DNA of 64,000 bases from Bacillales bacterium UBA743 (lineage in GTDB: Bacteria; Bacillota_I; Bacilli_A; RFN20; CAG-826): positions 1,601 through 65,600 of the forward strand of contig DBKT01000013.1 in the NCBI GenBank assembly GCA_002297365.1, read 5' to 3'. How positions within the stretch are numbered: the stretch's first letter is position 1; every line of letters starts with the position of its first letter. Made by a program: the position numbers and the translations under genes. The notes under the pieces were generated by a model that was given only the letters and a program-made list of their open reading frames with translations, was not told the origin of the DNA and ran no database searches. Positions 8,769 through 51,247 of the stretch are shown piece after piece.

Positions 8769-8836
8769 TTTTTTCTCCCTTTCTGATGAAGGGGCAGCGC
8801 CTAAGCGCCACCCCTCAATTTTTTGATAATCAGGAA

Positions 8837-33851: not shown

Positions 33852-35135
33852 CTATAAACAAAACAACGCATAAAGTGGAATAGACTTAATGCCATTTTCG
33901 TAACCAAAATTTTTAGAAGACAACCGAATAGAATATTTTGGTGAGTATTTTTCAACGTAAACTCTTAAACTTTTAGCGCGAACATTGTCCGCAGATTTAA
34001 CTTCAAGAGGAATGGCAGAGTCATCTTTTCTTAGAACAAAATCCACCTCTGCCTTGCCATTAGATTCCCGATAGTTTAAGCGATAGCCACATGATACAAG
34101 TTGTTCTGCAACATAGTTTCCTGCCAAAAGGCCTCTTGCCTTATCGGATATTGCACTTTCGACAAGAATATCTTGAGGCATAATTCCAGATTTGAAGCAA
34201 AGAAGTCCAACGTCAGAATAATAAATCTTGAATGCATCTAGCTGTTCATACAAAGAAAGCGGCAATTTCCCTTCACTCACTTTAACGTTTTCCAAGACCG
34301 CATTTGCGGCCTTAAGCCATTGAAGGGACAGTTCATAGTCTTTCGCACGAGCGTTGCTTTTAATTGAGGCGTAAATGAACTTCGTGTTCTCTTTTGCCAA
34401 TTGAGATGAAAGAGTATTGAAAATGGCTATGCTTTTGATGGTTTCATTTGGCGAAGCATACTTGGCCATATCAGCAATATAAGAATCGGAAATATTGGCC
34501 TGCATCGAACGTACGGAATCAAAATCATTTGTGTCAAGAAAGTTTTCAATGACCGCTGGATAACCACCAATAACCAAATATTTTCCATAAAGATCCAATG
34601 CGAGTTGATGATAAACCTCGGGGAGAGGAGAAAAAGCAGCGTAGGATTCGCGTATTTTTTCTATTAATGCATCATTATTGTTCGCCAATAAGAACTCTTC
34701 AAAAGAAAGAGGAAACATCGTTAACATATTTACCTTTCCGACAGGGAAAGAGAAGTTTCCTCTGTCAATACTGAGACCTAAAAGGTTCCCAGCAGCGACG
34801 ATATGATATTCATTCGCTTCTTCGGCAAAATATTTCAAAGATGTCAAAGCTCTTTCGGATGCTTGTATCTCGTCAAAAATAATCAAAGTCTTGCCCGGCA
34901 ATATCGTTTGTTTTGTATAGGCTGAAATCTCTTGGATGATACGCCTAGGATTTAAATCGGGAGAAAAGATTTTAGTAAGTGTTCCTGCGTCCCCTTCAAA
35001 ATGTAAATAAACAACGTTTTCATAATACGTCTTGCCAAAATCTAATAACGTATATGTTTTACCGACTTGCCTTGCGCCCTTTAATAAAAGCGGTTTACGC
35101 TGTTGCGATTTTTTCCATTCTAGAAGCGAATTCAT
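33852..35135 (-). CDS. AAA_14/DUF4143-type ATP-binding protein. It is a paralog of the previous gene.
   Basis: Walker A (GARQVGKTY), Walker B (IFDEIQ) and the same length class. Confidence 0.7.
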   Translation of the reverse strand: MNSLLEWKKSQQRKPLLLKGARQVGKTYTLLDFGKTYYENVVYLHFEGDAGTLTKIFSPDLNPRRIIQEISAYTKQTILPGKTLIIFDEIQASERALTSLKYFAEEANEYHIVAAGNLLGLSIDRGNFSFPVGKVNMLTMFPLSFEEFLLANNNDALIEKIRESYAAFSPLPEVYHQLALDLYGKYLVIGGYPAVIENFLDTNDFDSVRSMQANISDSYIADMAKYASPNETIKSIAIFNTLSSQLAKENTKFIYASIKSNARAKDYELSLQWLKAANAVLENVKVSEGKLPLSLYEQLDAFKIYYSDVGLLCFKSGIMPQDILVESAISDKARGLLAGNYVAEQLVSCGYRLNYRESNGKAEVDFVLRKDDSAIPLEVKSADNVRAKSLRVYVEKYSPKYSIRLSSKNFGYENGIKSIPLYALFCL

Positions 35136-35151
35136 TATTAAACGTCTTATT

Positions 35152-35700
35152 GGACTGCTAATCTTTAAGTAGACAGTGCATTACAATTTTGCATGCAGAT
35201 TGCAATGCTCTGTAGACAAGGAGGTTACAAAAATGAAACTAACGAAAGAAGAAAGGCTCCCGGTCGGCAAGATGCTGCACGAAGGGAGCCTTTCCTACAA
35301 GGACTGCATGGAAAAATACGGCGTTTCCAGATCCGCATGCTCCAACTGGGTGAGGGAATACAGGCAAATCAACGGAATCCCCCCAAAAGCCCCCATGGGG
35401 GCTCGCGCCGGCATGGGCCAAAGCGATTACGGATCGATGACAAAGAGCCAGCTCCTCGTTGAGCTGATGCGCAAGGACATCGAGGTCGCGAGACTAAAAA
35501 AAGGTATGCGGTGAAAGGGGGTGGTCGAAAAAAGGAATTCGTTTCTATAAGCGGCTCGAGTACCAAGTGATAATGGAGCTTTCCGGAAAATGGCCGGTCG
35601 TAGCCCTCTGCAGGGTGGACATAGCAAAAGTATACAAATCAATCAAACATTTCTTATCCGCCATGGTCATCTTATAAATCGGCATTGAAACTCCGCGGTC
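35152..35700 (+). mobile_element. Truncated IS3-family element, comprising the left inverted repeat, orfA and only about 50 codons of orfB
   Basis: The IRL reads TGGACTGCTAATCTTTAAGTAGAC. OrfA is a HTH protein (MKLTKEERLP…) with a GGAGG RBS. A frame-shifted orfB start (…WPVVALCRV…) stops after about 55 codons. The segment is GC-rich relative to its surroundings. Confidence 0.7.
35233..35514 (+). CDS. IS3-family transposase OrfA (HTH)
   Basis: See the mobile-element entry above. Confidence 0.65.
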   Translation: MKLTKEERLPVGKMLHEGSLSYKDCMEKYGVSRSACSNWVREYRQINGIPPKAPMGARAGMGQSDYGSMTKSQLLVELMRKDIEVARLKKGMR

Positions 35701-35916
35701 TAAGTAATATCCACCACCTTTGCCGTGTTTCGTTTCAATGTTAAAAGAATAACGTTCGTCTGTTGAAACTTTATCCAATTCCCTTTTATATTCAAGAATA
35801 TTCCTTTCTTTAGTGCCCAATTCTTCAGCTAACTCTTTTATGGAATGAACCCTTCCGTCATTCAAACACCGTAGCATTTCAATGCATTTTGCTGCTTTTC
35901 CTTTTTCTTTTTCCAT
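35545..35916 (-). pseudogene. HTH-WYL-type regulator truncated by the IS3 insertion. Only the N-terminal HTH survives.
   Basis: The N-terminus MEKEKGKAAKCIEMLRCLNDG…ELAEELGTKERNILEYKREL is homologous to the two full-length WYL regulators in this island. The C-terminal approximately 20 residues are read from the IS remnant on the opposite strand. Confidence 0.5.
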
Positions 35917-35968
35917 AATAACACACTCCAAAATATACAAAATCAATAGGCTTTGGGTTAACTTGCTG

Positions 35969-37398: not shown

Positions 37399-38379
37399 TT
37401 AGTTCCCTTTTCTTATTCCTTTTTCTATTTGATGCGAGTTTCCGAGAATTTCTAATGCGTTTTCTTTAATTGCTTCCTTCAGCCAATAAGGTTCAAGTAC
37501 TTTGCAATCTCTTCCAAAGCCAAGAATAAAAGAAACGATATTTTCTCTAAAATGCATGGTCACTTCAAATACTGTGCTTCCATCTGGCAAATCTTCAACA
37601 ATTTGTTCCTTCCCATAGCAATAGTCCTTAGCGCGAACAGCGGAACGACCATAAAGCTGAAATTTGATTCTATACCATTCATCAGTTTTAATTTTAGTCA
37701 AACCGTATTTATTAAAGAAATCTCTAGGGTTAAAGAACGTATCGTAAACAAACTTTCTACCCGTTGAGGCATAATTTGAAATTCTACACAATTTAAAATA
37801 GCGATAATCTTTTGCAAGCTCGCAATAACCAATTAAATACCAAGATCCGCCCCAGGAAAAAAGATACATGGGTTGAACGTTTCTTTCTCTTATGACATTA
37901 TCATTGGATAGAAAAGACATTCTGATTACCTCACGTTTTGAAATCGCTTCTTGAAAAAACAAATAACGTTTATTGATTTCTTCCTTGGATAAAGCTGAAG
38001 GAAAATGGTCAATAAAAACGAATTCTTCTGAATCGTTTGAATGAATTATCGAGGATAATATTTTTCCCATCGCAAGTTCATATTCTTTTTGATGTGGGAA
38101 TATATTCTGGGGGCGATTCATCTGATAGGCTTCCATTAAAGCATCTTTTTCCTTTTCCGTTAGAAGAATGCTTGGAAAAATGCTGGTATTTTCTAATTTA
38201 TATCCGCCATATCTACCCGGAATGGAGACAATGCTATATCCTGAATCTTCGATTTCCTTTTTGTATTCCAAAATATTTCTAGGATTTGTCTCGAGAAGAT
38301 TCGCTAATTCTGAAATTTTATAGATGTTTCCTGTATTTAATATTTGAAGCATTTTGATGCAAGACGAAGTTTTACTCAT
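37399..38379 (-). CDS. HTH-WYL domain transcriptional regulator (YafY/BrxR-like)
   Basis: An N-terminal HTH_11-like segment (CIKMLQILNTG…ISELANLLETNPRNILEYKKEIE) and a C-terminal WYL-type region (…FSWGGSWYLIGYCE…). Confidence 0.7.
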   Translation of the reverse strand: MSKTSSCIKMLQILNTGNIYKISELANLLETNPRNILEYKKEIEDSGYSIVSIPGRYGGYKLENTSIFPSILLTEKEKDALMEAYQMNRPQNIFPHQKEYELAMGKILSSIIHSNDSEEFVFIDHFPSALSKEEINKRYLFFQEAISKREVIRMSFLSNDNVIRERNVQPMYLFSWGGSWYLIGYCELAKDYRYFKLCRISNYASTGRKFVYDTFFNPRDFFNKYGLTKIKTDEWYRIKFQLYGRSAVRAKDYCYGKEQIVEDLPDGSTVFEVTMHFRENIVSFILGFGRDCKVLEPYWLKEAIKENALEILGNSHQIEKGIRKGN

Positions 38380-38390
38380 ATCCGTTTTCT

Positions 38391-38891
38391 CTATAGTTTT
38401 TCATTCCATCGTGCCTGTCCATTGGATTGATAAAACGTTATAAATAAATGTTCTATAGTTTCTTTATAATACCATGGCGTTACTTCAATTACCTTGTAAT
38501 AGATCTTTTTCTTGTTTTGTCGCTTTCCCAAATAATCATAAACATTCTTTATTTGCGAATTGGTGCTTGAGGGTTTCCCATATTTCTCCCCCTCAAAATT
38601 GTCGTTTTTGACTAAGTGCTGCGTTAATCTTAAATGGACATTATTAGCCGTACCAACATATAAAACGTTATTTTGTTCGTCTCCTATAAGATAAAGATAA
38701 GCGGTTGTGAGGTTTCCGGCATCTTCGTCTTTTTCAAAAGACAAAATTTCATCAAGGCAGTCCAAGGAATAGATGCCCGTTTTAGGATCAAAGGATGGAT
38801 TACCATATCTAAGTTCTATCCAAGGGGCCTTTCTAATTTTATTCTCATAATGTAGTCTTAGCAAAAATGAGATTAATTTCATGATTGTCAT
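38391..38891 (-). CDS. GIY-YIG nuclease-domain protein
   Basis: It has the canonical motif YLYLIGDEQNNVLYVGTANNVHLRLTQH. It lies immediately upstream of the WYL regulator, within 12 bp of it. The start codon is uncertain (alternatives at 38924 TTG and 38882). Confidence 0.65.
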   Translation of the reverse strand: MTIMKLISFLLRLHYENKIRKAPWIELRYGNPSFDPKTGIYSLDCLDEILSFEKDEDAGNLTTAYLYLIGDEQNNVLYVGTANNVHLRLTQHLVKNDNFEGEKYGKPSSTNSQIKNVYDYLGKRQNKKKIYYKVIEVTPWYYKETIEHLFITFYQSNGQARWNEKL

Positions 38892-39024
38892 CTTTTTTGA
38901 ATAATTATTATTGCAATATAGCAATCAAAGACAATAATACGCATATTAAGAAACGGGTGAAAGCGTTGAGTAAGATTTTTCTTATTTTCCATTATTTCAG
39001 CAAAACTACATTGCTTTTAATGAA

Positions 39025-39225
39025 CTAGCTCAATAAGGTAAGGCATCCGAAAACAATCAATGTAGTTCCAAGCATAAAACTAAGCGCCATGAAGATGGCC
39101 CAACGAATAGAAGCGGCCTTCGAAAAATTCCATCCCTTTGGATTTCTAGCGATTCTAATAATTCCAAGGCTCAATGCCGCTACACAGCCGACAGTTCCAA
39201 TGATAATTTCAATAATTCCTAACAT
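39025..39225 (-). CDS. Small 2-TM membrane protein (66 aa). It is a divergent paralog of the two upstream small proteins.
   Basis: TM-(IRIARNPKGWNF)-TM topology. Confidence 0.45.
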   Translation of the reverse strand: MLGIIEIIIGTVGCVAALSLGIIRIARNPKGWNFSKAASIRWAIFMALSFMLGTTLIVFGCLTLLS

Positions 39226-39246
39226 ATTTATATCCTTTCTTTTTCT

Positions 39247-39423
39247 TCAGAATGCTGCAGCAATCAGTATGACCCCACCGACAAATCCAATGATGGAACA
39301 AACAGCAAACATGATTCCGTAGAAACCTCTGAGGTTGTCTGGGGTTCTAATAATGCAAACGACAGTTGCTGCAACTGCAAGCACGCAAAGAACAATACCG
39401 ATAATTAACATAATTAAGTTCAT
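39247..39423 (-). CDS. Small 2-TM membrane protein (58 aa)
   Basis: MNLIMLIIGIVLCVLAVAATVVCIIRTPDNLRGFYGIMFAVCSIIGFVGGVILIAAAF. It shares the loop TPDNLRGFYGIMF with the next ORF. Confidence 0.55.
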   Translation of the reverse strand: MNLIMLIIGIVLCVLAVAATVVCIIRTPDNLRGFYGIMFAVCSIIGFVGGVILIAAAF

Positions 39424-39525
39424 AAATTTTCTCCTTTTTAGCTTTTATAAGCCTTTTGAATATTTGGCAAATGTTATTTGAGAAGGCAACATTTTCGCCA
39501 GTATTTGTTGTCCTTTCGATTTCCT

Positions 39526-39702
39526 CTAAAGCGAGAAGACAATCAAAGCGACCCCTGCGGCAAGTCCTACTACTGCACAAATTCCAAACATGATTCCATA
39601 GAAACCTCTGAGGTTGTCTGGCGTCTTGATGACACAGCCAATTGGCAACCCAATGGCAAATAAGCAAAGAATAATTCCAACGACTAATGTGACTAAATTC
39701 AT
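39526..39702 (-). CDS. Small 2-TM membrane protein (58 aa)
   Basis: MNLVTLVVGIILCLFAIGLPIGCVIKTPDNLRGFYGIMFGICAVVGLAAGVALIVFSL. It starts 12 bp after the FtsH-like gene. Confidence 0.55.
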   Translation of the reverse strand: MNLVTLVVGIILCLFAIGLPIGCVIKTPDNLRGFYGIMFGICAVVGLAAGVALIVFSL

Positions 39703-39713
39703 AATTTTCTCCT

Positions 39714-41039
39714 TTAATTTTTATTTTCAAATACGTCATGTATTTCCTTAGATGAGAGAGATGTTTTCTCAAGCAATCTTGCGGCTAATTTCTCGATTTT
39801 TTCTTTTCCTTCTTCAAGAATTTCTACAGCTCTCTTTGACAACCCTTCTATAATTTCTGTTCCTTTAGCCTGTCTTTCATCCATTATTGTCATACTAAAC
39901 GGTCCACTGTATTCGGGATTCTCAAGAACGATATAATCAAAACCATAGAAGCCTTCATTGAGCATCGCTGAGATCGTTTTTTTCGCTTTTTCAAAGTCGT
40001 CTTGATTGCCCCCAAAGCATTTTCCCGTCATGACCTTTACGGATAAGAAACCAGCTAAGGCTATCATGCAGGTTTCTTCTCCACTTTTAAGTGTGAAAGA
40101 TTCTTGTCCTGTAGATACTGTTTCAGTGGAACCACTTGATTCCCCTTGTTGAAGAAGAGAAACGCTTCCAAGCTTTTCTGGGATAAGGCGGTAAATCATA
40201 TAAGCATGCCCCGCTTCATGATAAGCGGTTAGCTTTTGTTCTTCTTTTGAGCAAGCGGATTCTCTTGGCAAATCCTTAAAGGCAACACGCCGAATCGCAT
40301 ATGTGAAGTCTTGAATAGAAAGAGATTGTTCTCGTTTGGAAACAGCTTGAATGATGACTTCGTTAACAACGCATTCTATATCCGCCCCAGAGAATCCGCT
40401 TGTCATTTTTGCGATTTCATCAACGCTTACTCCCAAAGGCAGGTCCGTTTTTTCCAAGAAGTGTTCAATGATCAATTTTCTTTCTAAATCATTGGGAAGG
40501 GGAAACACAATCTGCCTATCAAACCTTCCGGAACGGCTTAACGCATCTCCTAAATATTTTCTTTCATTGCAAGTTGCAATCACGATGACGCCTTCTTTAG
40601 AGCTGATTTTGTCCAACTCATGTAGAAGAATCTTCTGGTTTTTAAGATTTTCCGTTATTTCGTAAGCATACTTACGGTAGCCTGCAATTTTCTCAATCTC
40701 ATCAATAAATAAAATGGCGCGATCGTTTTCATGTGCCCTTTTGAAGCCGTGATAGATGTCTTCTTCTACGCTCAATTTCCTTTCGATGGCATCTGAAACG
40801 CTAATTTCAATAAGAGGAATATCCAAATACTCCGCAATATCCATCACCAGGCGAGATTTGCCAGTGCCTGGCTGCCCATAAAAGAGCCAGCCTTTTGGAT
40901 AATGGGCTCCTCTTTCGAGATAAAGTTTCTCATTTTGGAATAAATCCACGATTTGAGCCGCTTCTTCCCTTATTTCCCTATATCCAGCGATATGAGGAAA
41001 CATTTTTTGTAATGTAGTTTCGTTAATTTTTTCAGTCAT
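39714..41039 (-). CDS. FtsH-like AAA+ ATPase/M41 zinc metalloprotease that lacks the transmembrane and periplasmic regions
   Basis: Walker A (GQPGTGKSRL), Walker B (ILFIDEIE), the SRH (…LSRSGRFDRQI…) and HEAGH (TAYHEAGHAYMIY). The protein starts only about 50 aa before the Walker A, so it has no N-terminal TM hairpin. Confidence 0.75.
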   Translation of the reverse strand: MTEKINETTLQKMFPHIAGYREIREEAAQIVDLFQNEKLYLERGAHYPKGWLFYGQPGTGKSRLVMDIAEYLDIPLIEISVSDAIERKLSVEEDIYHGFKRAHENDRAILFIDEIEKIAGYRKYAYEITENLKNQKILLHELDKISSKEGVIVIATCNERKYLGDALSRSGRFDRQIVFPLPNDLERKLIIEHFLEKTDLPLGVSVDEIAKMTSGFSGADIECVVNEVIIQAVSKREQSLSIQDFTYAIRRVAFKDLPRESACSKEEQKLTAYHEAGHAYMIYRLIPEKLGSVSLLQQGESSGSTETVSTGQESFTLKSGEETCMIALAGFLSVKVMTGKCFGGNQDDFEKAKKTISAMLNEGFYGFDYIVLENPEYSGPFSMTIMDERQAKGTEIIEGLSKRAVEILEEGKEKIEKLAARLLEKTSLSSKEIHDVFENKN

Positions 41040-41076
41040 ATCTCCTCCTTTCGGAACAAGATTATCTTAAAAGCCA

Positions 41077-41108
41077 TTCCTACATTATTTATGTATGAAT
41101 TCATTTTT
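41077..41108 (-). promoter_or_regulatory. Shared dyad motif, copy A (CTACATtatttATGTAT), 40-60 nt upstream of the FtsH-like gene
   Basis: See finding 3. Confidence 0.55.
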
Positions 41109-41142
41109 ATTAAAAATAATTTAGAAACTTAAAAACGTTATA

Positions 41143-41640
41143 TTACTTTTTGATGGTCAAAGTTCGACGAAGCATATGAGCCTTGATTTTGAGTTTCTCT
41201 TTTTGCTTTGTATAGAAACGCCCGTATTCGTCCACATATAGACCAGTGACAACGCTCGTATTAAGAAAATCCCAGACAATTAAGTGAACGTTCTTGCCGA
41301 ACTTAACTTTCCCATCGAAAATAATCTTTGTTGGAACGAGGCCGTTGTCTGAGTATTCAGGAACGGGGCAAAACTTTCTTAATTTTTCTACAGCATATTC
41401 TAAAGTTCCAGTTACTTGGTTTCCAGAAAAGGTAATGCGTTGAAAATCAGAATCGTAGAAATTTCCTTGATTGTCCTTATATGCGCCTTCAAGAACAATA
41501 GAAGAACCGTCTTTTTTAACATGTTCAAACCTGCAATAAGACAAAGATGGTCTTATTTGATTTACGCCTGTAAAAGGGAGGCTTATCGTTGTATATGTTA
41601 ATTCGACAAAATTATTTTTTTCATTTAAATGTAGTTTCAT
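41143..41640 (-). CDS. Hypothetical protein (about 165 aa)
   Basis: The ORF overlaps the LemA stop. Confidence 0.45.
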   Translation of the reverse strand: MKLHLNEKNNFVELTYTTISLPFTGVNQIRPSLSYCRFEHVKKDGSSIVLEGAYKDNQGNFYDSDFQRITFSGNQVTGTLEYAVEKLRKFCPVPEYSDNGLVPTKIIFDGKVKFGKNVHLIVWDFLNTSVVTGLYVDEYGRFYTKQKEKLKIKAHMLRRTLTIKK

Positions 41641-41641
41641 A

Positions 41642-42148
41642 CTAAATATCGTTATCATCGAATCCGGCTAGTTTTGTACTAGAATCTAGATTTTGGGAAT
41701 CTATATATTTAGCGTTTTTGAAACGAAAGATCGTTTTTAAAATAACGTTCGGAAATTCATTGATGTATTGATTGTAATCATTCACCAACTTATTAAGTTC
41801 TAATTGAGAATTTTGGTAAGCATCTGCTAAAGAGAGAACGAGATTTCCTGCTAAGGTAAAATGCGAAGATATCTTTCCTGTCGCCCCTCCAATCAACCTT
41901 CCTCCTTGATAAGAAGAATTAGCCACCTTATAAGCGTTCCCTTGCGAAGAATCCGCATCTATGGTTGCAGTTCCTGTCTTTCTCAAAACTTGAAGGTATT
42001 TTGCTTTTGCAATACGCACATTGCTTTGGGCATCACGAATATTTTCTCTTTTGCGGATCACCATATTTCGAAAGCCAATAATCCATCCGATTAACCAGCA
42101 AAAAGCTATAAAACCTAATGCCAATAACATCCATCCCCACCATCTCAT
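41642..42148 (-). CDS. LemA-family protein
   Basis: An N-terminal TM, then …FRNMVIRKRENIRDAQSNVRIAKAKY…, and a C-terminal FPNVILKTIFRFKNAKYI. This matches the LemA pattern. Confidence 0.65.
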   Translation of the reverse strand: MRWWGWMLLALGFIAFCWLIGWIIGFRNMVIRKRENIRDAQSNVRIAKAKYLQVLRKTGTATIDADSSQGNAYKVANSSYQGGRLIGGATGKISSHFTLAGNLVLSLADAYQNSQLELNKLVNDYNQYINEFPNVILKTIFRFKNAKYIDSQNLDSSTKLAGFDDNDI

Positions 42149-43701
42149 AAATTTGATTCCTTGTATTTCAATACATTTATTGCATTTTTTACCTTTTCTA
42201 GATTCACTTTGTGCTTAAACTCGTTCTTCTCTCTATCTGTAAAAACGCATCCATCCTCAATGAGCTTGTTCATGTATTCCCCCGCTTTAGGGAAGCCAAT
42301 AGAACAATGTCTTTGAATGTCGCTTATACCAACTGTTGGCATATTCTCACAATAGAGTAATACTGTAAGATAAGTCACGTCATTTGAATTAGAAACAGGA
42401 GCATTGCCACTTTTTACTTCACCATTTGGAACGAAAGTGTCTGTTTTCGGAGACTCTTTTTTCTTAGCCTTTAATTCAGTGAAGGCGCCCTCCGGCTTCT
42501 TAGAACAGCGCTCGGGATTGATATAGCCTTCTTCGCAAAGACGGTTGAATAAACGACCAGCAACCGGAAAGCCGATGGAATATTTCCTTTGAATAGTACT
42601 GATGCTAATGAATTCATCGTTTTCACAATCTTGGATCAATTCCTGATAAATGATATCCGTTGATTTTTGCTGAGTTTGATTTGAGTTTGTAAGCCCTTCG
42701 GCGTTTTTATTCGTCTGCTCTGGTTTAAGCTCTTTATTCGCCATCTCTGGTTTAAACTTTCTGTTGGATTTCAGAATCTTTCTTCCAATCGTCATTAATT
42801 TATCCCGGAGGATTTGAGGAGAAAGCACTTCGCATTCTCCCTGAAAGTCGAGAATAGCCCTAAGTGTTCCTTCTAAATCCTCTGTATCAAATTTCAAAAT
42901 GACAGAACCATCATCTAAAACCCTTTCCGATTGATTTGCCCCAAGCTCTCTTTTCCCAATGTAAGGGCATAAAGAGGACAAATGAAGTTCTACGTGATAT
43001 ACCTTTTCTTTAAGAAAGTTGAAATCCGTGTTATCAACGTAATCTTCATTGAAAAAATAATCTTTTGAAAAACCGATACCAGAAGTTTTGTATTCTTGAA
43101 TGTTATTTAATTTGATGCATTGATATTTCTTTTGGATTCGTGAATAGCAAAGAAGAAAAAGACTACCATCATCCATAATGAGTTTGTACGGTTCAACATC
43201 GTTTTCGATTGCTTTATGAATCGTGACCACGTAGACAATATGTGCTACAAGCCTCTTTTCAATGCATTTAACAAAGAAATCGTATCGTTCCTTTAACTCT
43301 TTGGTGGATAAAGCAAAACGACTACGGTCCGTTATTTTAACTTTGGGGGTTTCCTTTCCATCCCAACGGATAGCAGAGAAAATTTTGTTCATCGCCTTTT
43401 CAAAATCATCCCGGCAATAGATGGTTCCTTCATTGCTCACATACGAAGAAGCAAAAGCGAGAGAATCTCTTTCTTCCTTTGTAAAGCAAAGGGAGGGGAG
43501 CAAAACGGACTTCTTTAAACAAATCCCGCCATACCTTCCCGATGTAGATTCAAATTCATATCCACATTCTTGAAGTTCTTTCCTATATTCTGAGATGTTT
43601 CTTTCTTTAAAGCCCAAGGTGTTTGCCAATTCGGAGTTTTTATATTTCTTTCCCCCAGCGAGGGCTTGTAGCATCTTGATGCAATTTGCTGTTTTTCCCA
43701 T
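42145..43701 (-). CDS. HTH-WYL regulator fused to two C-terminal FtsK-gamma-like winged-helix domains
   Basis: The N-terminus CIKMLQALAGGKKYKNSELANTLGFKERNISEYRKEL is homologous to the other WYL regulators. The C-terminus carries SISTIQRKYSIGFPVAGRLFNRLCEEGYI and GISDIQRHCSIGFPKAGEYMNKLIEDGCV, which fit the FtsK gamma pattern S.S..QR…IGY.RA.R…LE..G.V. Confidence 0.65.
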   Translation of the reverse strand: MGKTANCIKMLQALAGGKKYKNSELANTLGFKERNISEYRKELQECGYEFESTSGRYGGICLKKSVLLPSLCFTKEERDSLAFASSYVSNEGTIYCRDDFEKAMNKIFSAIRWDGKETPKVKITDRSRFALSTKELKERYDFFVKCIEKRLVAHIVYVVTIHKAIENDVEPYKLIMDDGSLFLLCYSRIQKKYQCIKLNNIQEYKTSGIGFSKDYFFNEDYVDNTDFNFLKEKVYHVELHLSSLCPYIGKRELGANQSERVLDDGSVILKFDTEDLEGTLRAILDFQGECEVLSPQILRDKLMTIGRKILKSNRKFKPEMANKELKPEQTNKNAEGLTNSNQTQQKSTDIIYQELIQDCENDEFISISTIQRKYSIGFPVAGRLFNRLCEEGYINPERCSKKPEGAFTELKAKKKESPKTDTFVPNGEVKSGNAPVSNSNDVTYLTVLLYCENMPTVGISDIQRHCSIGFPKAGEYMNKLIEDGCVFTDREKNEFKHKVNLEKVKNAINVLKYKESNL

Positions 43702-43720
43702 ATAAATCCCCTTTCTTTTT

Positions 43721-44509
43721 TTAATAAATGACTGTACTCATGCAGACAACGGATGCTCTGTTTTTAACATTTCCAGACGTTAAGACAGAAGCGTTCGTGT
43801 AGTTTCCTTCCAAAACAACCTCGCCTGCCGCTTCAATTTGCAGAGTATCTAATGTGCAATTCGCTTTTACGGCTCCGTTCGTTTTTACGGATAAAACTTG
43901 AATAGAATTCAAGGCAATCTCAAAGAGGAAACTCCGTTTTTTAACTTTTTTTAGAGCATCCGCTTGAAAACTAAGATATAGTTCACCATTAGAATCTTTT
44001 TGAAAAATCAACGCATCATTTGGCAAATCATTGCCATTTCCATATATGGTGAAACAGCTCTTGTTTCTCGAAGCTGGATCCGCTCCACTATTTACGATCG
44101 TGATGTCTCCTGAAGGAATATCCAGGGACATGATTCTTGCATCCCCCAAAAAAATCTCCCTTCTCCTATTTAAGAGAATAACATCGGAGGAGAAATGAAT
44201 GGGGGCCTCTTTTGGCATACGGGCAGCAATGCTAGAGTTCTTTTTCACAAAAGGGGACAAGGCCTGAAATACGTCTTCTTTCGGATAAAACATGTTCTTG
44301 TTTGCTATACGGGTCAGCTCTTTTTCATCCAGAAGGGATGCGGGGTCCTCATCTTTTATCAAAGACGTAAGAACGTCAAGAAAGTGCTTTTGAGAGAGGT
44401 TGCCCCCTATAAAATCCGCCAAGAAGGAACACAGGTAGAGAGGTTGCTTGAATATCTGTTCTTTGTCTTCCCTATTAAGAATGATTTTAACTGCTTCAGC
44501 GTAAGTCAT
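43721..44509 (-). CDS. Hypothetical protein (262 aa) with a beta-rich repetitive C-terminal half
   Basis: The C-terminus has short degenerate repeats (VKTNGAVKAN / VLEGNYTNASVLTSGNVKN). Confidence 0.45.
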   Translation of the reverse strand: MTYAEAVKIILNREDKEQIFKQPLYLCSFLADFIGGNLSQKHFLDVLTSLIKDEDPASLLDEKELTRIANKNMFYPKEDVFQALSPFVKKNSSIAARMPKEAPIHFSSDVILLNRRREIFLGDARIMSLDIPSGDITIVNSGADPASRNKSCFTIYGNGNDLPNDALIFQKDSNGELYLSFQADALKKVKKRSFLFEIALNSIQVLSVKTNGAVKANCTLDTLQIEAAGEVVLEGNYTNASVLTSGNVKNRASVVCMSTVIY

Positions 44510-45344
44510 ATTTTGATTCTCCGATTGAATTTAGCAAAAAAAGAAAAAAGATGGTTATTCCAAAAATTATAATGGGAAGAAAGTAGGCTATAAGACTATA
44601 TGTGATAGATCCTTTTTCAGAAGGGAACGAAGATGCAGACACTGCAAAAGAAACGGATAATGCAGCTGCAACGCCAGTTGAATAAGGACGTAGATGAATA
44701 TTGTGTCGGTCACCCTTGTTTACTAAATGTTGATTCACAAAATAAAGAACAATTAAGATGGTTCCTGTAATTAAAGAGAACCAAAAGATATAAGAATCTT
44801 TTTTAAGAGCCCATCCAATCACGCCTCCCATAGTATTCATCAAAAACAAGATTCCATTGACGATGGCTGCGTGCTTTTTCCTGTGTTTCAAATGATTGAA
44901 ATTACTATATTTGTTCCATTTGTTTTCGATAACGGAGCTGAGGCACTGCACAAAGAAGGCGGCAACCCCTATAGCCAACATCATCCAGCAAGAGAAGAAA
45001 GAAGAAATGAAAAGCGCAATGAAAAACAAACAGACAAAAATAGTTAGAAAATAGGCATCATAGAAAATACTGGACTTGTTTTCATCATATTGAATATAGG
45101 ATGACTTATAACCCTCGACACCATGATTTTGATGAGGAACGTATCGATTAGAACGATTGAAGTTATGGGCGCCTCTAGCATTTTGCTTAGGACATTCCCC
45201 TCTCTTCTTTTTAGAAGTCTGAGCAATTCGTTGATTCGGAGGATTATTATCGCTAGAGGGAAAATGAACTATAAAAGGTGGTAGAGCGCCCTTCCTCCTG
45301 CTTCTTCTATTATTCATTTCGAAAGAATACTTATCTCGATTCAC
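44496..45344 (-). CDS. Hypothetical polytopic membrane protein with a basic N-terminal tail
   Basis: An N-terminal Arg/Lys-rich 80 aa is followed by 5-6 TMs. Confidence 0.45.
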   Translation of the reverse strand: MNRDKYSFEMNNRRSRRKGALPPFIVHFPSSDNNPPNQRIAQTSKKKRGECPKQNARGAHNFNRSNRYVPHQNHGVEGYKSSYIQYDENKSSIFYDAYFLTIFVCLFFIALFISSFFSCWMMLAIGVAAFFVQCLSSVIENKWNKYSNFNHLKHRKKHAAIVNGILFLMNTMGGVIGWALKKDSYIFWFSLITGTILIVLYFVNQHLVNKGDRHNIHLRPYSTGVAAALSVSFAVSASSFPSEKGSITYSLIAYFLPIIIFGITIFFLFLLNSIGESKYDLR

Positions 45345-45359
45345 GATATAACCTCCGCT

Positions 45360-46436
45360 CTAGTTTTCTCTAAGTGAAAGCATTCTTTGATAAAGGTATT
45401 GTAGATATTGTCGCATGTATTCAAGGTAATGGTAGATTTCCTCAGGGCAGTAAGATGGGTCCGATAAAATGGATTGTTTTTTCGATAAGTGAACATTGTT
45501 ACGAAGATCGTGAAATTTCTTTCTCATTTGGCCTTCCTTGCTTGAAGAGGGAACGTTAATAATCTTGTTTAGTTCAGCAATGCATTGACGATCCAAGGTC
45601 GGATCATGCTTCGCTGGGCGTTGAATTCCTAATAACATCGCTCCAATTTCAATTTCAATGGCTTCAATAACGCTATATGCTTGGGTAAAGATTTCACGAT
45701 AAATGGCTTTTTCAAGACTTGGATCTAATGCAGGATTAGCCGTGTTAACAAGATCCTTGTAAAAATACATTTCTCTAATGACGATTGCGATGTTATACAT
45801 CGATTCTTTACTTGTGGTTAGATAACGTAAGTTAAAGGCCTCGCAAATCTCATCTAACGTGAAATCGACAGCATTAAAGGAAAATCTAGTATATGGGTCC
45901 GTCATTTTAGGTTTTTGTTTGACAATATCGGAGGAGTTATTAACCATTGGCTGGATAGGCAATTCATTTGATAATCCAGGATTTTTCATGGCCGCCATTA
46001 AAATAGAAGTGGCGCATACTTGTTTTCTAATTCCGTCAAATTCAATTCTTTTCTGATGGGACAGACTTTCTTTTAAATCGTTTGAAAGACTGGCATTGTG
46101 GAAAGAAAATATGAAACCATAGAAAGAAACGTAAAGAACGTCTCCTTGATACTCATAGTAAAAATCAACGTCTTCCCTTTGCGCGCGGGTTTCGTACACG
46201 CATCGTTCTATTTTCCTTTTGAAGGAATAACCAATAGAACGATCTTTTTTTACAGCAAAATTCAAATAATTGAAAGAAGCCCAAACAAGGAAGGCATCCC
46301 CCAAGCTCTTTATTCTTAAATTTTCAATCGTAGAAAAACTACGTTTCACCAAACTATTGTCTACAGAGTTGTTATCAAATTGATGTTCTGCAGCATTTTT
46401 AAGAAGGGCGCTAAATATCGTTTGATAGTTATACAT
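45360..46436 (-). CDS. Hypothetical protein (about 358 aa)
   Basis: The start is placed at MYNYQ, abutting the upstream stop. No motif was recognised. Confidence 0.45.
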   Translation of the reverse strand: MYNYQTIFSALLKNAAEHQFDNNSVDNSLVKRSFSTIENLRIKSLGDAFLVWASFNYLNFAVKKDRSIGYSFKRKIERCVYETRAQREDVDFYYEYQGDVLYVSFYGFIFSFHNASLSNDLKESLSHQKRIEFDGIRKQVCATSILMAAMKNPGLSNELPIQPMVNNSSDIVKQKPKMTDPYTRFSFNAVDFTLDEICEAFNLRYLTTSKESMYNIAIVIREMYFYKDLVNTANPALDPSLEKAIYREIFTQAYSVIEAIEIEIGAMLLGIQRPAKHDPTLDRQCIAELNKIINVPSSSKEGQMRKKFHDLRNNVHLSKKQSILSDPSYCPEEIYHYLEYMRQYLQYLYQRMLSLREN

Positions 46437-46437
46437 A

Positions 46438-47040
46438 TTAAAACTCCGTCCAGCGAAAGCTGTTATTGTTTTCAGAATCATCTGGATTATTATTTTGTGC
46501 ACTAGAATAATCCCTTTCCGAAATCAGTTTTGTTTTGAGTTCAACTTTACTCGGTTCAAAAGAACGAACAACCGTCTTTGTCTTTCTTCCTAAGAAACCA
46601 TATTGAATGCAATGTATGTCACCAAGAACAAACTTTACAACAATTTGAATTTCTCCATCTTGGTTTAAATGTTGAGGCTGAAGAATGATTTCTTTTGTGA
46701 AATATCTTTTGTTTTCGAGCGGAATAACAGGTTCCCCTCCTAAATCAATTTGTTCATACTTATCATTGTCAAAATTTAAAGCGTATACTTTGATACTCAA
46801 TTGAGGCGTTTGAATTTCTTCTAAAAATGCATAAGTATTTTCGGAAGAAACCAATATGCCGTTTCCTTCATTAAACACGTCATAATCAATGTGGTCGAAG
46901 AAAACCCCCAAACGTACACCAATGGTCTTGTCATAGTGGTAAAGTCGGCATTGGTCCGAAATGTTGAAGTTGAATCTTTGATTGTGTTCGCTCACATACG
47001 CTTTAGATTCATTTTCGTCAAAAATATCAGAAACATTCAT
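46438..47040 (-). CDS. Hypothetical protein (200 aa). It is the first gene of the seven-gene unit.
   Basis: An ORF with the dyad motif upstream. Confidence 0.45.
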   Translation of the reverse strand: MNVSDIFDENESKAYVSEHNQRFNFNISDQCRLYHYDKTIGVRLGVFFDHIDYDVFNEGNGILVSSENTYAFLEEIQTPQLSIKVYALNFDNDKYEQIDLGGEPVIPLENKRYFTKEIILQPQHLNQDGEIQIVVKFVLGDIHCIQYGFLGRKTKTVVRSFEPSKVELKTKLISERDYSSAQNNNPDDSENNNSFRWTEF

Positions 47041-47097
47041 ATAATTCTCCTTTCTGAATGGATGACTTATTTTGTCATGGCTATTACTATAAAAATT

Positions 47098-47132
47098 ATT
47101 CCTACATCATTTATGTATGGATTAAATAAAAG
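47098..47132 (-). promoter_or_regulatory. Shared dyad motif, copy B (CTACATcatttATGTAT)
   Basis: See finding 3. Confidence 0.55.
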
Positions 47133-47141
47133 ATGAATTTA

Positions 47142-47936
47142 TTAAGAATCATCTTTCCAAAGAAGGCCCAAAGAAACATCGTCTCCGATTCCGATTTCTG
47201 TGCCCAATTTGAATACGAAGTCGACTATTTTTTCTTTTTTGCCCTTTTTTAGACTCTCTAAAATAGGTCTTACGCAAGAGGTGCAAAAATTATCAAAAGT
47301 TCTATACGGGTTTATGAAACCATCCGTAAAAACCATGGCTCCATCCACTTCCGAAATAGAAAGGATTTTAAGCCTTATATGTTGATAAGCGTCCGCTTGG
47401 CACATCGAGTACGTGATGTTTGCCACATTATCTTCCTCCTCCTGGAAGATTCTTTCGGCCGTGCCGTTCTTTAAAAGGAAGCAACCACCATCTCCTAAAG
47501 AAACACAAATCAACCTTTTTCCCAAGATCATTGCCCCATTTAAGGTAGTTCCGTATGCGATTTGAGGATCTTGAAGAATTAAAGTTCTTTCATCTTCATC
47601 TAGAATGGAGAGTTCTTTATCGGTGAAGGGGCGCTTAGAAATGTCTTCTTCGACAAGTCCATTCCATTTGCAGAGAATCGCAAGACGGATACGATTTTCC
47701 GCTCGGCTTTCGTTGAGTAAACGTTCCTCGTTTGTTTTCTTAAATACATATAGGATTGCATCGGAGGCAAATTTTGAGCCCCTGTCACTGCGAATATAGA
47801 GCTTTCCTCCATGGCCATCGCAAGAAGTAACAATGGTTCTTGTTTCATCATGATAAGAATCAGAATAGTCCTGACATATAATTCCGTTTTTTATATGAGA
47901 GTAACCAATAGATGTTGTTGTTAAATATTGAACCAT
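47142..47936 (-). CDS. PP2C-family Ser/Thr protein phosphatase
   Basis: N-terminal …GYSHIKNGIICQDYS…TSCDGHGG and C-terminal …MVFTDGF…. Confidence 0.7.
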   Translation of the reverse strand: MVQYLTTTSIGYSHIKNGIICQDYSDSYHDETRTIVTSCDGHGGKLYIRSDRGSKFASDAILYVFKKTNEERLLNESRAENRIRLAILCKWNGLVEEDISKRPFTDKELSILDEDERTLILQDPQIAYGTTLNGAMILGKRLICVSLGDGGCFLLKNGTAERIFQEEEDNVANITYSMCQADAYQHIRLKILSISEVDGAMVFTDGFINPYRTFDNFCTSCVRPILESLKKGKKEKIVDFVFKLGTEIGIGDDVSLGLLWKDDS

Positions 47937-47939
47937 AAG

Positions 47940-48671
47940 TTACCACTCCCAATCGTCTACTTCAGCAATCGCTTGTTGCACTAAACCCTTTATCTCTTCC
48001 GTTTGAGATGGTTTCTTTCCTTTTACTGATGAAGAACTCGATTTCACCTTGGAGGCTGTTATCACTATGATTTTGATGATTCGATTGAGCAAACGTGCGT
48101 CATAACATTCAATTACATCTCCGTTTCCCGAAACAAAATCGTTCAAGCAACGAATGGTTTTCTCATCATTTGATCCAACCGATATACCATATTTCAAAGC
48201 AATTTTGAACCATGGAAGTTTTTGCAAAGAAGACAATTCTGTTTTGATAGCTCCGTTACTAGGATGGCCATCGCTCATCAAGAGAATGATGGGAGCCAAT
48301 CCGCCAAAATCTGGCATGATTCCGCCTTGAGATTCTTTTTTTAAGATTTCGGAAAGAAACTTATAGGCAAGATGGATATTGCTTCGCCCTGCAGCCTTAA
48401 TGCCTTGAAAGCCAAATTTTTTCACTGGCAAGCATTTCTCGTCTTTATAAAACGAAGCTTGGGTGGAATATGTAATCAAGGTAATATAGAAATCAACATT
48501 GGTGTTTTCATCTTCCATCTTCGAAAGATAATCTTTAATTTCAAAAATGGCATCATTTACTTGTTCAATACGGGTACCCCGCATGCTTGAAGAAGTGTCC
48601 ACAAGCAAAATGATATTAAGTCTTTGCTTGGCGATGTTTCCTACAAAGACGTTACCAGTCTGTGTCGACAT
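47940..48671 (-). CDS. vWA-domain protein (TerY-like)
   Basis: MIDAS motif (LLVDTSSSM) and a …LMSDGHP… segment. The C-terminus is acidic (DDWEW). Confidence 0.7.
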   Translation of the reverse strand: MSTQTGNVFVGNIAKQRLNIILLVDTSSSMRGTRIEQVNDAIFEIKDYLSKMEDENTNVDFYITLITYSTQASFYKDEKCLPVKKFGFQGIKAAGRSNIHLAYKFLSEILKKESQGGIMPDFGGLAPIILLMSDGHPSNGAIKTELSSLQKLPWFKIALKYGISVGSNDEKTIRCLNDFVSGNGDVIECYDARLLNRIIKIIVITASKVKSSSSSVKGKKPSQTEEIKGLVQQAIAEVDDWEW

Positions 48672-50705: not shown

Positions 50706-50747
50706 TTGTTAGCACCTCCTTTTAATGTGTTTTCAAGTATATGAAGG

Positions 50748-50775
50748 ATCCCTACATCATTTATGTGACGATAGG
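50748..50775 (-). promoter_or_regulatory. Shared dyad motif, copy C (CTACATcatttATGTGA)
   Basis: See finding 3. Confidence 0.5.
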
Positions 50776-51160: not shown

Positions 51161-51247
51161 AAAAGTATGAACGAGTATGAAAATATTATAAAAGTATGAA
51201 CGAGTATGAAAGGGTTTTAAAAGTATGAACGAGTATGAAAATAAAAA
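51161..51247 (+). repeat. 3 x 29-bp direct repeats (AAAAGTATGAACGAGTATGAAA + 7 nt). The third copy contains the real start codon of the downstream ATPase.
   Basis: The repeats are exact over 22 nt. Each carries ATGAACGAGTATGAA. The first two ATGs run into a TGA after 10 codons. Confidence 0.85.

Follow-up and report, generated by a model that had tools for sequence, protein, structure and literature searches.

Among AAA+ proteases, FtsH is the textbook example of one anchored in the membrane; its soluble forms are known chiefly as truncations made in the laboratory. The 64,000-nt stretch of DNA analysed here (the window) encodes an FtsH-like protein without a membrane anchor, directly followed by three very small proteins with two transmembrane (TM) segments each, which raises the question of whether these are the detached anchors of a split FtsH or partners, or mere neighbours, of a naturally soluble enzyme. 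As the original prediction described, and as ORF coordinates and ribosome-binding sites confirm, four ORFs lie in tandem on the minus strand: the 441-aa soluble FtsH-like AAA+/M41 zinc protease (39714..41039), identified by ORF and domain searches, microprotein A1 (58 aa, 39526..39702), microprotein A2, or A' (58 aa, 39247..39423), and microprotein B (66 aa, 39025..39225). A1, preceded by a strong ribosome-binding site, starts 11 nt past the end of the protease gene; Shine-Dalgarno sequences (AAAGGAG, AAAGGAG and AAAGGA) are located 6-8 nt ahead of the three small ORFs. Judging from this layout, the protease and the three microproteins form a single 2-kb transcription unit, protease first, with its own dyad-bearing promoter. 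It is one of three transcription units in a TerY-P-type kinase/vWA/PP2C gene cluster.

Pfam searches identified in the 441-aa protein an AAA domain (residues 52-181), an AAA_lid_3 domain (204-245) and a Peptidase_M41 domain (263-436, E 2.4e-16), all of which are shared with canonical FtsH (MEROPS M41; TIGR01241). The NCBIfam FtsH_fam profile covers the protein only via its positions 152-598 of 598, so the TM and periplasmic N-terminus is absent; no TM segment was found in the protein, which bears out the earlier view that TM1, the periplasmic domain and TM2 are missing. Its extent is the same as that of the engineered FtsH delta-TM constructs 2ce7, 4ww0 and 2dhr. The scores against TIGR01241 (248.4 bits, equivalog cutoff 600) and PRK10733 (151 bits, cutoff 1008) are low, and the identity to any canonical FtsH is about 33%, with a clear score gap. 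The predicted structure has the FtsH-cytosolic fold (pLDDT 84.9), and the best Foldseek matches of the model are the FtsH structures 3kds, 2ce7 and 4ww0. An intact canonical ftsH, with the N-terminal TM region, the MFVGVGA pore motif and HEAGH, is present elsewhere in the window (59809..61992), also as predicted. Unlike it, the 441-aa protein is accessory and island-borne, being neither essential nor core.

The AAA module had been called complete, and this holds for Walker A (residues 55-62, G55-K61), the Walker B DE pair (D113-E114), sensor-1 N158 and the arginine fingers R169/R172 (SRH arginines R169/R172/R175), as well as for the protease site HEAGH (274-278, H274-E275-A-G-H278) with D348 as the third zinc ligand. 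The Walker, sensor-1, arginine-finger and zinc-site residues do not vary among 15 family members, and canonical FtsH has them too. It does not hold for the substrate-handling motifs: the pore-1 loop MFVGVGA, whose aromatic residue is F228 in E. coli FtsH, is replaced by the non-aromatic RKLSV-E, and the inter-subunit motif DGF by LDKI, while the pore-2 region is remodelled (AGY...Y). Relatives of the protein have KKIT, HKRT or LGKS at the MFVG position, which is not conserved across the family. The protease gene is under strong purifying selection (dN/dS 0.04-0.14). The protein is an intact member of a naturally soluble FtsH-derived family and, with these catalytic residues, is predicted to be an active protease; given that the pore-1 aromatic residue has been lost, whether it degrades proteins processively at all is uncertain. 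Retention of both catalytic sites together with the discarding of the substrate-gripping pore motif poses the question of how substrates are engaged.

The missing N-terminus does not result from a sequencing error. The protease start is delimited by a stop codon and a ribosome-binding site, as noted originally, no in-frame 5' extension is possible, and the 103-nt upstream spacer represents a conserved promoter/operator region; a frameshifted 5' TM extension is ruled out by this conserved intergenic promoter and its dyad. The frameshift explanation is also rejected because starts across the family fall 3-20 residues ahead of an IAGY motif.

The family comprises about 30 clusters at 90% identity among 5.8 billion clusters, and five loci were found in 241 million metagenome records. 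At 50% identity its short representatives (about 430-460 aa) make up at least 28 clusters, beside which larger multi-AAA fusions exist. No hydrophobic segment was predicted in 26 of the 28 short representatives; the other two have a lone segment above the threshold, which in P0012, a close relative of P0013, lies at residues 330-349, inside the protease domain and not at the N-terminus. HExxH is present in all but one of the 28 and MFVG in none. These proteins constitute a rare family lacking a name, which, as far as the sequences tell, has lost the membrane anchor and the canonical pore-1 and inter-subunit motifs and kept the ATPase and protease catalytic residues. The number of sequence clusters, together with the multi-AAA fusions, shows that soluble FtsH has been made repeatedly in nature. 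A contig search with generic FtsH patterns gave, among the matches listed, canonical FtsH loci only (at most 34% identity), and a plasmid search for the family likewise gave canonical FtsH only (at most 30%). A protein-pattern scan of IMG/VR yielded no match, and none of the 14 matches to an FPHIAGY DNA pattern in IMG/VR encodes a relative by tblastn; a BFVD fold search recovered giant-virus FtsH and AAA proteins only. Literature searches turned up no relevant account of a TM-less FtsH occurring naturally in bacteria or of FtsH associated with TerY-P.

Microproteins A1 and A2 are two-helix TM hairpins with the identical loop motif KTPDNLRGFYG; the loop TPDNLRGFYGIMF is invariant between them. 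The two had been described as nearly identical, which is true of the loop motif and its flanks, where identity is complete, and not of the proteins as a whole: overall identity is 52-56%, 63 of 177 nucleotides differ and dS is about 1.7. This divergence rules out a recent tandem duplication, and A2 is an old paralog of A1. Microprotein B, again a hairpin of two TM segments, has a basic loop of 19 residues (RIARNPKGWNFSKAASIRW) and is orthologous to a 65-aa ORF of L092-L095 (58% identity). The predicted model of a microprotein is a helical hairpin (pLDDT 86). All are small, hydrophobic and Gly/Ala-rich, with no soluble tails and just a 10-19-residue loop; types A and B terminate within TM2, with no charged tail. 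The loop is presumably cytosolic, a topology taken from the positive-inside rule only. Given dN/dS values of 0.06-0.28, with dS saturated, the microproteins are real genes. All loci with a protease at least 81% identical (window, L004/5, L006, L092-95, L112, L114, L118-121) have one to three copies after the protease gene, and the microproteins are confined to this narrow clade; the conservation of the small ORFs in homologous loci, on which the original prediction had depended, is borne out together with purifying selection. The window gene order recurs in JGI, ENA and Logan assemblies, where independent gene callers called all three small ORFs. Comparison of the microproteins with Pfam, PHROG, PADLOC and NCBIfam gave no informative match, and the protease with its small membrane proteins is indeed a conserved, apparently co-transcribed module outside standard annotation libraries.

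The 13-kb cluster is encoded entirely on the minus strand. It begins with a Ser/Thr protein kinase of the TerY-P type (49404..50705), with a Pfam Pkinase domain at residues 17-218 and a C-terminal zinc ribbon (CPQC at 306, CPAC at 326), followed by two vWA proteins, the first (48652..49416) with DNSAS as its MIDAS motif and a C-terminal tail of acidic-Trp type, the second (47940..48671) with DTSSS and a tail ending in DDWEW, and by a PP2C-type phosphatase (47142..47936; Pfam PP2C_2, E 4e-26). All components of the TerY-P phosphorylation triad, reportedly described by Anantharaman, Iyer and Aravind in 2012, are present, namely vWA with MIDAS (DxSxS), PP2C and Ser/Thr kinase with a C-terminal Zn ribbon; in contrast to the plain triad, the cluster has a duplicated vWA gene and additionally encodes the FtsH-like protease, membrane proteins, microproteins and two WYL regulators. 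Next come a 200-aa protein (46438..47040), kept in L004, L006, L092 and L007 (41% identity to L007), and a protein of about 360-380 aa (45360..46502), 44% identical to its L007 counterpart, whose true start is probably an internal ATG near 46442. A 282-aa integral membrane protein with about five TM segments (44496..45344), a 262-aa protein (43721..44509), a 518-aa wHTH-WYL-WCX regulator with two C-terminal FtsK_gamma-like winged helices (42145..43701) and a 168-aa LemA-like protein (41642..42148) are encoded further downstream. The LemA-like protein has one N-terminal TM helix and a Pfam match below threshold, and is 51% identical to its L089 homolog. A 171-aa protein (41143..41658) is the product of the last gene of the transcription unit upstream of the protease. 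No function is assigned to the 200-, 360-380-, 262- and 171-aa proteins; searches of PADLOC, PHROGs and NCBIfam with the cluster proteins lacking an assigned function gave no informative match. Downstream of the protease unit, a GIY-YIG nuclease-domain protein (38391..38924), an insertion specific to the window, fills a variable slot between the microproteins and the gene for a 326-aa wHTH-WYL-WCX transcription regulator (37399..38379), which closes the cluster and is kept at the cluster end in all related loci.

A perfect dyad TACATAAATAATGTA of the form TACAT-N5-ATGTA (41081..41095, minus strand), presumed to be an operator/promoter element, lies 42 nt ahead of the start codon of the protease gene and is identical in L004-L007 and L092-L095. 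A second copy (TACATAAATGATGTA, 47103..47117, minus strand) is found upstream of the 200-aa protein gene, and a third, with one mismatch (CACATAAATGATGTA, 50753..50767, minus strand), upstream of the kinase gene. None of 100 shuffles reached the three sites of the window, whose occurrence is statistically non-random; the shared dyad that had been proposed is real in this sense. The protease module sits under this dyad in an island of lower GC content with IS-like repeats on its flanks, in agreement with its placement in a defence-type island. The cluster looks like a defence system. Against validated defence-system models it gave only generic AAA and kinase matches; in PADLOC, the vWA and PP2C proteins had no match and the TerY-P kinase matched generic kinase families only. 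This result, together with the intact catalytic sites and the strong purifying selection, would also fit a housekeeping paralog with a role in cytosolic proteostasis, which would have no part in conflict systems and would merely lie beside an unrelated signalling operon. Such an origin is most improbable in view of the sparse and patchy spread of the family, the lower-GC island with its IS-like flanks, the dyad common to the protease and TerY-P genes, the flanking WYL regulators and the variable cargo slot adjoining the protease unit.

The combination of TerY-P, FtsH-like protease and WYL genes recurs in three clades, with 100%, 56% and 41% protease identity. In L007 (56%) the same dyad and TerY-P partners are found, with no membrane genes or microproteins between the kinase and WYL genes; the contig stops 200 nt past the WYL gene, and this absence covers the kinase-to-WYL interval only. 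In the 41% clade (L089 and L110), small TM ORFs not homologous, in L089, to types A or B follow the LemA-like gene, 5 kb from the protease, at the opposite operon end. The membrane module co-varies: in L089 the genes for the 5-TM and LemA-like proteins and the small TM ORFs lie side by side, and in L007 all of them are missing between kinase and WYL genes. The protease also occurs outside such clusters, half of the sampled members (L001, L002/3, L088, L115, L116 and L117) being located in other contexts without TerY-P, and is therefore not bound to the TerY-P system.

The split FtsH advanced in the original prediction, in which the microproteins, as detached anchors, would dock the soluble hexamer and rebuild a membrane-bound quality-control protease, gains from the 11-nt distance between protease and A1, from an adjacency strictly kept in the close clade and from the invariant, presumably cytosolic loop, which could serve as a docking epitope. 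It is nevertheless quite improbable and did not withstand the comparison with relatives. The protease family is TM-less, and in the gene neighbourhoods sampled most members were without an adjacent TM ORF. The A-type microprotein is confined to nine clusters among 5.8 billion; the anchor-less state thus long predates the microproteins. Overall, loci have anything from 0 to 3 copies, with none beside the 56%-identical L007 protease in the interval covered, and in the 41% clade it is the LemA-like gene, not the protease gene, that small TM ORFs follow. The microproteins show no similarity to the FtsH N-terminus and contain neither a periplasmic domain nor soluble tails. The pore-1 motif required for membrane-protein extraction is missing from the protease, and the genome already has a canonical ftsH. 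Rather than the lost anchor of the protease, the microproteins probably represent a membrane add-on that is optional.

An add-on could, in turn, have nothing to do with the protease itself. The position of the small TM ORFs of L089 and L110 after the 5-TM/LemA-like genes, and the joint absence of membrane genes and small ORFs from the covered part of L007, which retains protease and dyad, are what would be expected if the microproteins belonged to the 5-TM plus LemA-like membrane module and merely shared the protease transcript in the window clade. We give such incidental neighbourhood a modest chance of being correct, since the L089 ORFs lack homology to types A and B and, in the window clade, the gaps of 11-22 nt and the adjacency of protease and microproteins are invariant across 81-100% protease identity although dS is saturated.

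Small membrane proteins and peptides, SpoVM for instance, are among the substrates of FtsH. The microproteins might accordingly be membrane-depolarising toxins that the protease degrades all the time or ceases to degrade on a trigger; its loss or inhibition would kill or arrest the cell in the manner of abortive infection. Such toxin-antitoxin-like control agrees with co-transcription with the protease gene first, with the small, hydrophobic, Gly/Ala-rich hairpins, and with an effector-like turnover, visible as variable copy number and as the non-homologous small TM ORFs of the 41% clade. We consider it unlikely, if conceivable: the hairpins offer no cytosolic N- or C-terminal tail to grasp, just the 10-19-residue loop, the pore-1 aromatic residue is absent, and the protease is mostly found without microproteins. 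Nor do they resemble class II holins or type I toxins. A class II holin has two TM domains, ends in a charged tail in the cytoplasm and is encoded next to an endolysin, whereas the microproteins lack the tail and no lysin gene was found near them; type I toxins are single-TM peptides with antisense RNA, unlike the two-TM microproteins.

The reading that we favour, though with somewhat less than even confidence, is that the soluble FtsH-like protease and the microproteins constitute a unit inside a WYL-regulated TerY-P-type cluster, with the microproteins as part of an optional membrane module. In this scheme the WYL regulators would hold the three dyad promoters shut, presumably by binding the dyads, until stress or infection is signalled; the kinase/phosphatase/vWA triad would then serve as a switch, and the soluble FtsH-like hexamer, acting on putative targets, would be the constant ATP-dependent proteolytic executor or regulator. 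The microproteins, the LemA-like protein and the multi-TM protein would make up the optional membrane module. The best reading of the microproteins, which would not be FtsH fragments, is an accessory membrane effector or a docking role: they could perturb the membrane, or provide a docking site via the invariant cytosolic loop, with putative contacts to the protease. The locus is a compact, testable candidate for a branch of TerY-P-type defence that would be new and built on a protease. A bolder version, which we regard as rather speculative, is that there exists a soluble pore-1-less FtsH-like class devoted to conflict systems, in which the TerY-P-switched hexamer is recruited by the loop TPDNLRGFYG to form an inducible, non-covalent 'membrane FtsH'; if true, its engagement would trigger membrane permeabilisation or targeted proteolysis during infection. 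The strongly constrained microprotein pair, with its 10-residue invariant loop, offers a handle for interaction studies.

Parts of this arrangement are found in known systems. TerY-P triads are described as switches that work by phosphorylation, and TerY-P-like modules as anti-phage systems in their own right (PMC11090510); according to the summary in PMC11090510, the anti-phage activity was shown by Gao et al. 2020. In the type III-A CoCoNuT extension, a SpoVK/CDC48-like AAA+ protein is encoded beside a glycine-zipper protein, with duplicated TerY-like vWA genes flanking (PMC11090510). The cluster similarly joins TerY-type vWA genes in duplicate with an AAA+ ATPase of the classical clade and a small membrane-type protein rich in Gly. 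However, Pfam searches of 37399-50705 revealed none of the McrBC/CnuBC, HEPN or CARF genes of CoCoNuT (Type II/III-A). The CoCoNuT AAA+ is a tandem SpoVK-like ATPase, while that of the window is a single-module FtsH-type protein with an M41 protease domain of predicted activity, and the small CoCoNuT protein is PD-(D/E)xK-like with a C-terminal glycine zipper, while the window microproteins are bare two-TM hairpins.

The best PADLOC and NCBIfam defence matches of the 441-aa protease are to IetA (E 6e-30 and 1e-24), over residues ~22-279, the AAA module only. In IetAS, an FtsH-related AAA ATPase (IetA) is paired with a serine (subtilisin-like) protease (IetS), a likeness to the 441-aa protease; in the cluster no S8 protease, and hence no IetS subtilase, was found, and proteolysis would fall to the M41 domain fused to the ATPase. 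The 441-aa protein also lacks the TM helices and the extracellular domain of FtsH type that are found in IetA. Recruitment of an FtsH-type AAA+ protein into a vWA conflict system is also seen in the vWA-MoxR FtsH ternary systems of actinobacteria, deltaproteobacteria and planctomycetes, which require both a MoxR ATPase and an FtsH-type AAA protein of double build, its N-terminal copy being inactive (Kaur et al. 2020, PMC7159879). Unlike these, the cluster has no MoxR among its ORFs, a single AAA module, a TerY-P triad and a low-GC host (~40% G+C) with relatives that stem mostly from gut metagenomes. WYL regulators such as CapW and BrxR reportedly control defence operons. The two cluster regulators have the wHTH-WYL-WCX architecture of CapW/BrxR and a palindromic promoter site to which they would putatively bind; one of them (42145..43701) differs from CapW/BrxR in bearing two extra FtsK_gamma-like winged helices.

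The feature is real: it is an FtsH-lineage AAA+ protease encoded together with a TerY-P conflict operon. The FtsH-like protease is a 441-aa protein encoded on the minus strand (39714..41039), with Pfam domains AAA (residues 52-181), AAA_lid_3 (204-245) and Peptidase_M41 (263-436). The NCBIfam FtsH equivalog aligns with it over profile positions 152-598 only (248 bits, cutoff 600), and because the alignment begins at position 152 the TM1-periplasmic-TM2 region is absent, in agreement with the original prediction that the N-terminal FtsH anchor is missing. A transmembrane extension missed at the 5' end can be dismissed, as the ORF cannot be extended upstream and the 103-nt spacer preceding it is conserved and promoter-like. 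By sequence, the protein has the extent of the engineered delta-TM constructs 2ce7, 4ww0 and 2dhr. Its AlphaFold2 model is confident (pLDDT 84.9), the top PDB matches being FtsH cytosolic regions and the m-AAA and i-AAA proteases. The window also encodes an intact canonical ftsH with the N-terminal membrane region (59809..61992), as had been noted.

The AAA module had been described as complete, which holds for the catalytic machinery but not for the pore-1, DGF and pore-2 elements. Walker A, the Walker B residues D113-E114, the sensor-1 residue N158 and R169/R172/R175 are invariant in an alignment of 15 relatives, as are HEAGH (274-278) and the third zinc ligand, D348. The aligned counterpart of the canonical pore-1 sequence MFVGVGA is RKLSV-E, which is non-aromatic and unconserved within the family; LDKI occupies the place of the DGF inter-subunit motif, and the pore-2 region is remodelled (AGY...Y). 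As judged from these alignments, the catalytic machinery is intact, while the canonical substrate-gripping elements are not.

The search of 5.8 billion clusters recovered only about 30 clusters of 427-459 aa that are 40-100% identical to the protease; below them is a clear gap, canonical FtsH being next at about 33% identity. When 1.84 billion representatives were searched exhaustively by HMM, at least 28 short family members (423-468 aa) appeared among the top 150. None of these showed a TM anchor: hydrophobic segments are absent from 26 of the 28, and each of the other two has one lone segment that does not resemble an N-terminal anchor. The MFVG motif occurs in none of the 28, and HExxH is kept in all but one. 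The family was not found in IMG/VR, a plasmid search returned canonical FtsH only, at no more than 30% identity, and 241 million metagenome records yielded only five loci with a family-specific DNA pattern. The HMM search also returned many multi-AAA proteins of 800-1400 aa with the same module at the C-terminal end. Among proteins of this size, P0164-P0182 and P0206-P0221 combine 2-4 AAA modules with a C-terminal M41 domain, outscore canonical FtsH against the profile of the TM-less family, and look like another radiation of non-canonical FtsH-like proteases, as yet uncharacterised.

The upstream part of the 13-kb minus-strand cluster (37399-50830) encodes a Ser/Thr kinase with a CPQC...CPAC zinc ribbon (49404..50705), two vWA proteins with the DxSxS MIDAS motif (48652..49416 and 47940..48671) and a PP2C phosphatase (47142..47936). 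A zinc-ribbon kinase, vWA and PP2C constitute the TerY-P triad (PMC11090510), and the cluster, by its predicted domain content, has this architecture. Further genes on the same strand code for proteins of 200 aa (46438..47040) and about 360-380 aa (45360..46502) without assigned function, a 282-aa protein with five TM segments (44496..45344), a 262-aa protein without assigned function (43721..44509), a wHTH-WYL-WCX regulator with two FtsK_gamma-like domains (42145..43701), a LemA-like single-TM protein (41642..42148) and a 171-aa protein without assigned function (41143..41658). Beyond the protease lie the microprotein genes (39025..39702), a window-specific GIY-YIG gene (38391..38924) and a second wHTH-WYL-WCX regulator (37399..38379), likewise on the minus strand. 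The C-termini of both vWA proteins are acidic-Trp tails (...EVDDWEW in 47940..48671 and ...DVDTDW in 48652..49416), which are kept in the L089 and L007 homologs and could be a docking or degron motif.

The dyad TACATAAATAATGTA, noted earlier as a shared motif, withstood a shuffling control: the kinase, the 200-aa gene and the protease each have an upstream site of the perfect dyad form TACATAAAT(A/G)ATGTA, and a count of three was reached in none of 100 shuffles. The copy 5' of the protease is identical in the related loci L004-L007 and L092-L095. Since the dyad is common to these three genes, the protease and the microproteins probably form a separately promoted unit of one predicted regulon.

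The ORF call confirmed three small minus-strand ORFs after the protease, each with an upstream Shine-Dalgarno sequence: A1 (58 aa, 39526..39702), which starts 11 nt past the protease stop, A2 (58 aa, 39247..39423) and B (66 aa, 39025..39225). Independent JGI, ENA and Logan assemblies show this arrangement too, each of the three small genes being called there. A1 and A2, previously regarded as nearly identical, are 52-56% identical and differ at 63 of 177 nt; it is the loop and flank, (K/R)TPDNLRGFYGIMF, that are invariant in paralogs and orthologs. Pairwise dN/dS of the microproteins (0.06-0.28, at dS of 0.9-2.0) is comparable to that of the protease (0.04-0.14), which argues that they are translated genes under purifying selection. 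Type A is modelled as two helices (2-26 and 34-57; pLDDT 86) forming a hairpin, essentially without soluble termini. Basic residues are found in the loops of type A (K/R26 and R32) and type B (five in RIARNPKGWNFSKAASIRW), and by the positive-inside rule the loops would be cytosolic. Type A is limited to nine clusters (72-100% identity), and type B has a 65-aa ortholog (58% identity) in L092-L095. Neither type matched a family in Pfam, PHROG, PADLOC or NCBIfam.

Two roles had been suggested for these proteins. That they are the detached membrane anchors of a split FtsH is very improbable, given that TM-lessness is family-wide, the microproteins are narrowly distributed, vary in copy number, and have neither tails nor similarity to the FtsH N-terminus. 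Toxins under the control of the protease would be thematically plausible; however, the microproteins lack a tail that could be engaged, and the protease has a degenerate pore motif, which makes this role unlikely.

In the window and in all relatives with a protease identity of at least 81% (L004/L005, L006, L092-L095, L112, L114 and L118-L121), one to three small TM ORFs directly follow the protease, and the members of this group have the whole TerY-P cluster in common wherever the contig reaches (L004/L005, L006, L092-L095 and L118-L120). Locus L007 (56% identity) encodes the kinase, vWA, PP2C, the 200- and 350-aa proteins, the protease with the same dyad, and WYL; it has no small TM ORF, the stretch from the kinase gene to the WYL gene encodes no membrane protein, and the contig ends just after. 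L089-L091 and L110 (41% identity) carry the protease at the 5' end, TerY-P with a duplicated vWA, and WYL, and include a contiguous block of a 5-TM protein, a LemA-like protein (51% identity) and TM ORFs of 37 and 54 aa that are non-homologous to the window microproteins. This pattern makes the protease the constant partner of this TerY-P variant. The small TM proteins accompany the membrane module, and the family can do without them. It is rather unlikely that the microproteins are incidental neighbours within that module.

Other family members have unrelated contexts. These include KAP NTPase, DUF3990 and HTH genes in L001 and ABC permeases in L115. A second recurrent context is shared by L002, L003, L116 and L117, where three genes precede that of the FtsH-like protein; they encode a ~900-aa protein, a ~118-aa protein and a further stand-alone AAA ATPase (~375 aa), whose identity to the AAA module of the protease is 30%. 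In L088, four paralogous proteasome-beta-like genes of ~190 aa (5073-7418) lie directly upstream of a TM-less FtsH-like gene (8001-9353; product 49% identical); the paralogs have an HslV-like N-terminus and match Pfam Proteasome-subunit weakly (E 1.9e-4), and the set may be a separate soluble AAA-protease/proteasome-like module.

The established description comprises a soluble FtsH-derived protein with intact catalytic sites, the TerY-P architecture, the shared dyad and flanking WYL regulators, together with the predicted co-transcription of the protease with conserved microproteins and the co-variation of the membrane genes. A composite scheme, plausible but tentative, can be proposed on this basis: the WYL proteins would keep the dyad promoters repressed until stress or infection is signalled, the TerY-P triad would act as the switch and the FtsH-like protease would be the executor or regulator; the microproteins may, along with the LemA-like and 5-TM proteins, serve as an optional module at the membrane, with an effector or docking role. 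These mechanistic steps are much less firm than the descriptive core.

By its architecture the locus does qualify as a TerY-P triad. It also works like four other known systems without belonging to any of them. The protease departs from canonical FtsH in its anchor, pore-1 motif and equivalog score. The notion that it is a housekeeping paralog is hardly credible. Its likeness to IetAS is confined to the AAA module, with no IetS at the locus. The cluster lacks the MoxR of the vWA-MoxR FtsH ternary systems, and its protease has a single AAA module. The same theme is seen in CoCoNuT extensions, where TerY-type vWA genes flank those for SpoVK-like AAA+ and glycine-zipper proteins, but the cluster lacks an McrBC or HEPN core. 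A search of the accessible literature found neither a description of a natural TM-less bacterial FtsH nor a TerY-P/FtsH association. The interest of the locus lies in a naturally soluble, pore-1-less FtsH family and in tightly constrained microproteins.

Between the microproteins and the closing WYL gene there is a slot for variable cargo: L004 and L006 have nothing there, the window has the GIY-YIG gene, and L092-L094 have three genes without assigned function (773, 336 and 116 aa; L092 8524-12967). Large FIVAR-repeat and PT-HINT polymorphic-toxin genes lie directly downstream of the cluster in L004/L005 (9656-15329) and L089 (10547 onward), which places these related clusters next to another conflict system. 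The family representative P0007 (530 aa) has a C-terminal extension (~465-510) resembling an FtsK_gamma-like winged helix, a domain also present in the 518-aa WYL protein of the window and in small L089 proteins. The BLAST matches (E 7e-4 to 4e-3) were obtained against a tiny local database, and there was no Pfam match; the extension may connect the protease with FtsK_gamma-domain proteins in the Rosetta-stone sense.

The cluster is part of a 17-kb island with a GC content of 37.2%, compared with 40-41% in the flanks, bracketed by an IS-like direct repeat of ~100 nt (85% identical; 35130-35230 and 52420-52520). Both repeat copies contain an RBS and a near-palindrome (GCATTACAAT...ATTGTAATGC). 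After the left copy comes a 112-aa HTH_28/HTH_23 ORF (35176..35514) that looks like an IS3-family OrfA, and after the right copy a truncated 32-aa version of it. The genes flanking the island (33852..35135 and 52682..54043) encode paralogous AAA_14+DUF4143 ATPases. A 29-nt tandem repeat (AAAAGTATGAACGAGTATGAAAATATTAT; 2.9 copies, 87% matches) at 51161-51243 overlaps the start of a STAND-like ATPase gene (51225..52295, plus strand), which is divergent from the kinase operon. At the island edge, a 133-aa ORF (35545..35946) is similar to the wHTH at the N-terminus of the WYL regulators, has no WYL or WCX domain and looks like a truncated third regulator copy.
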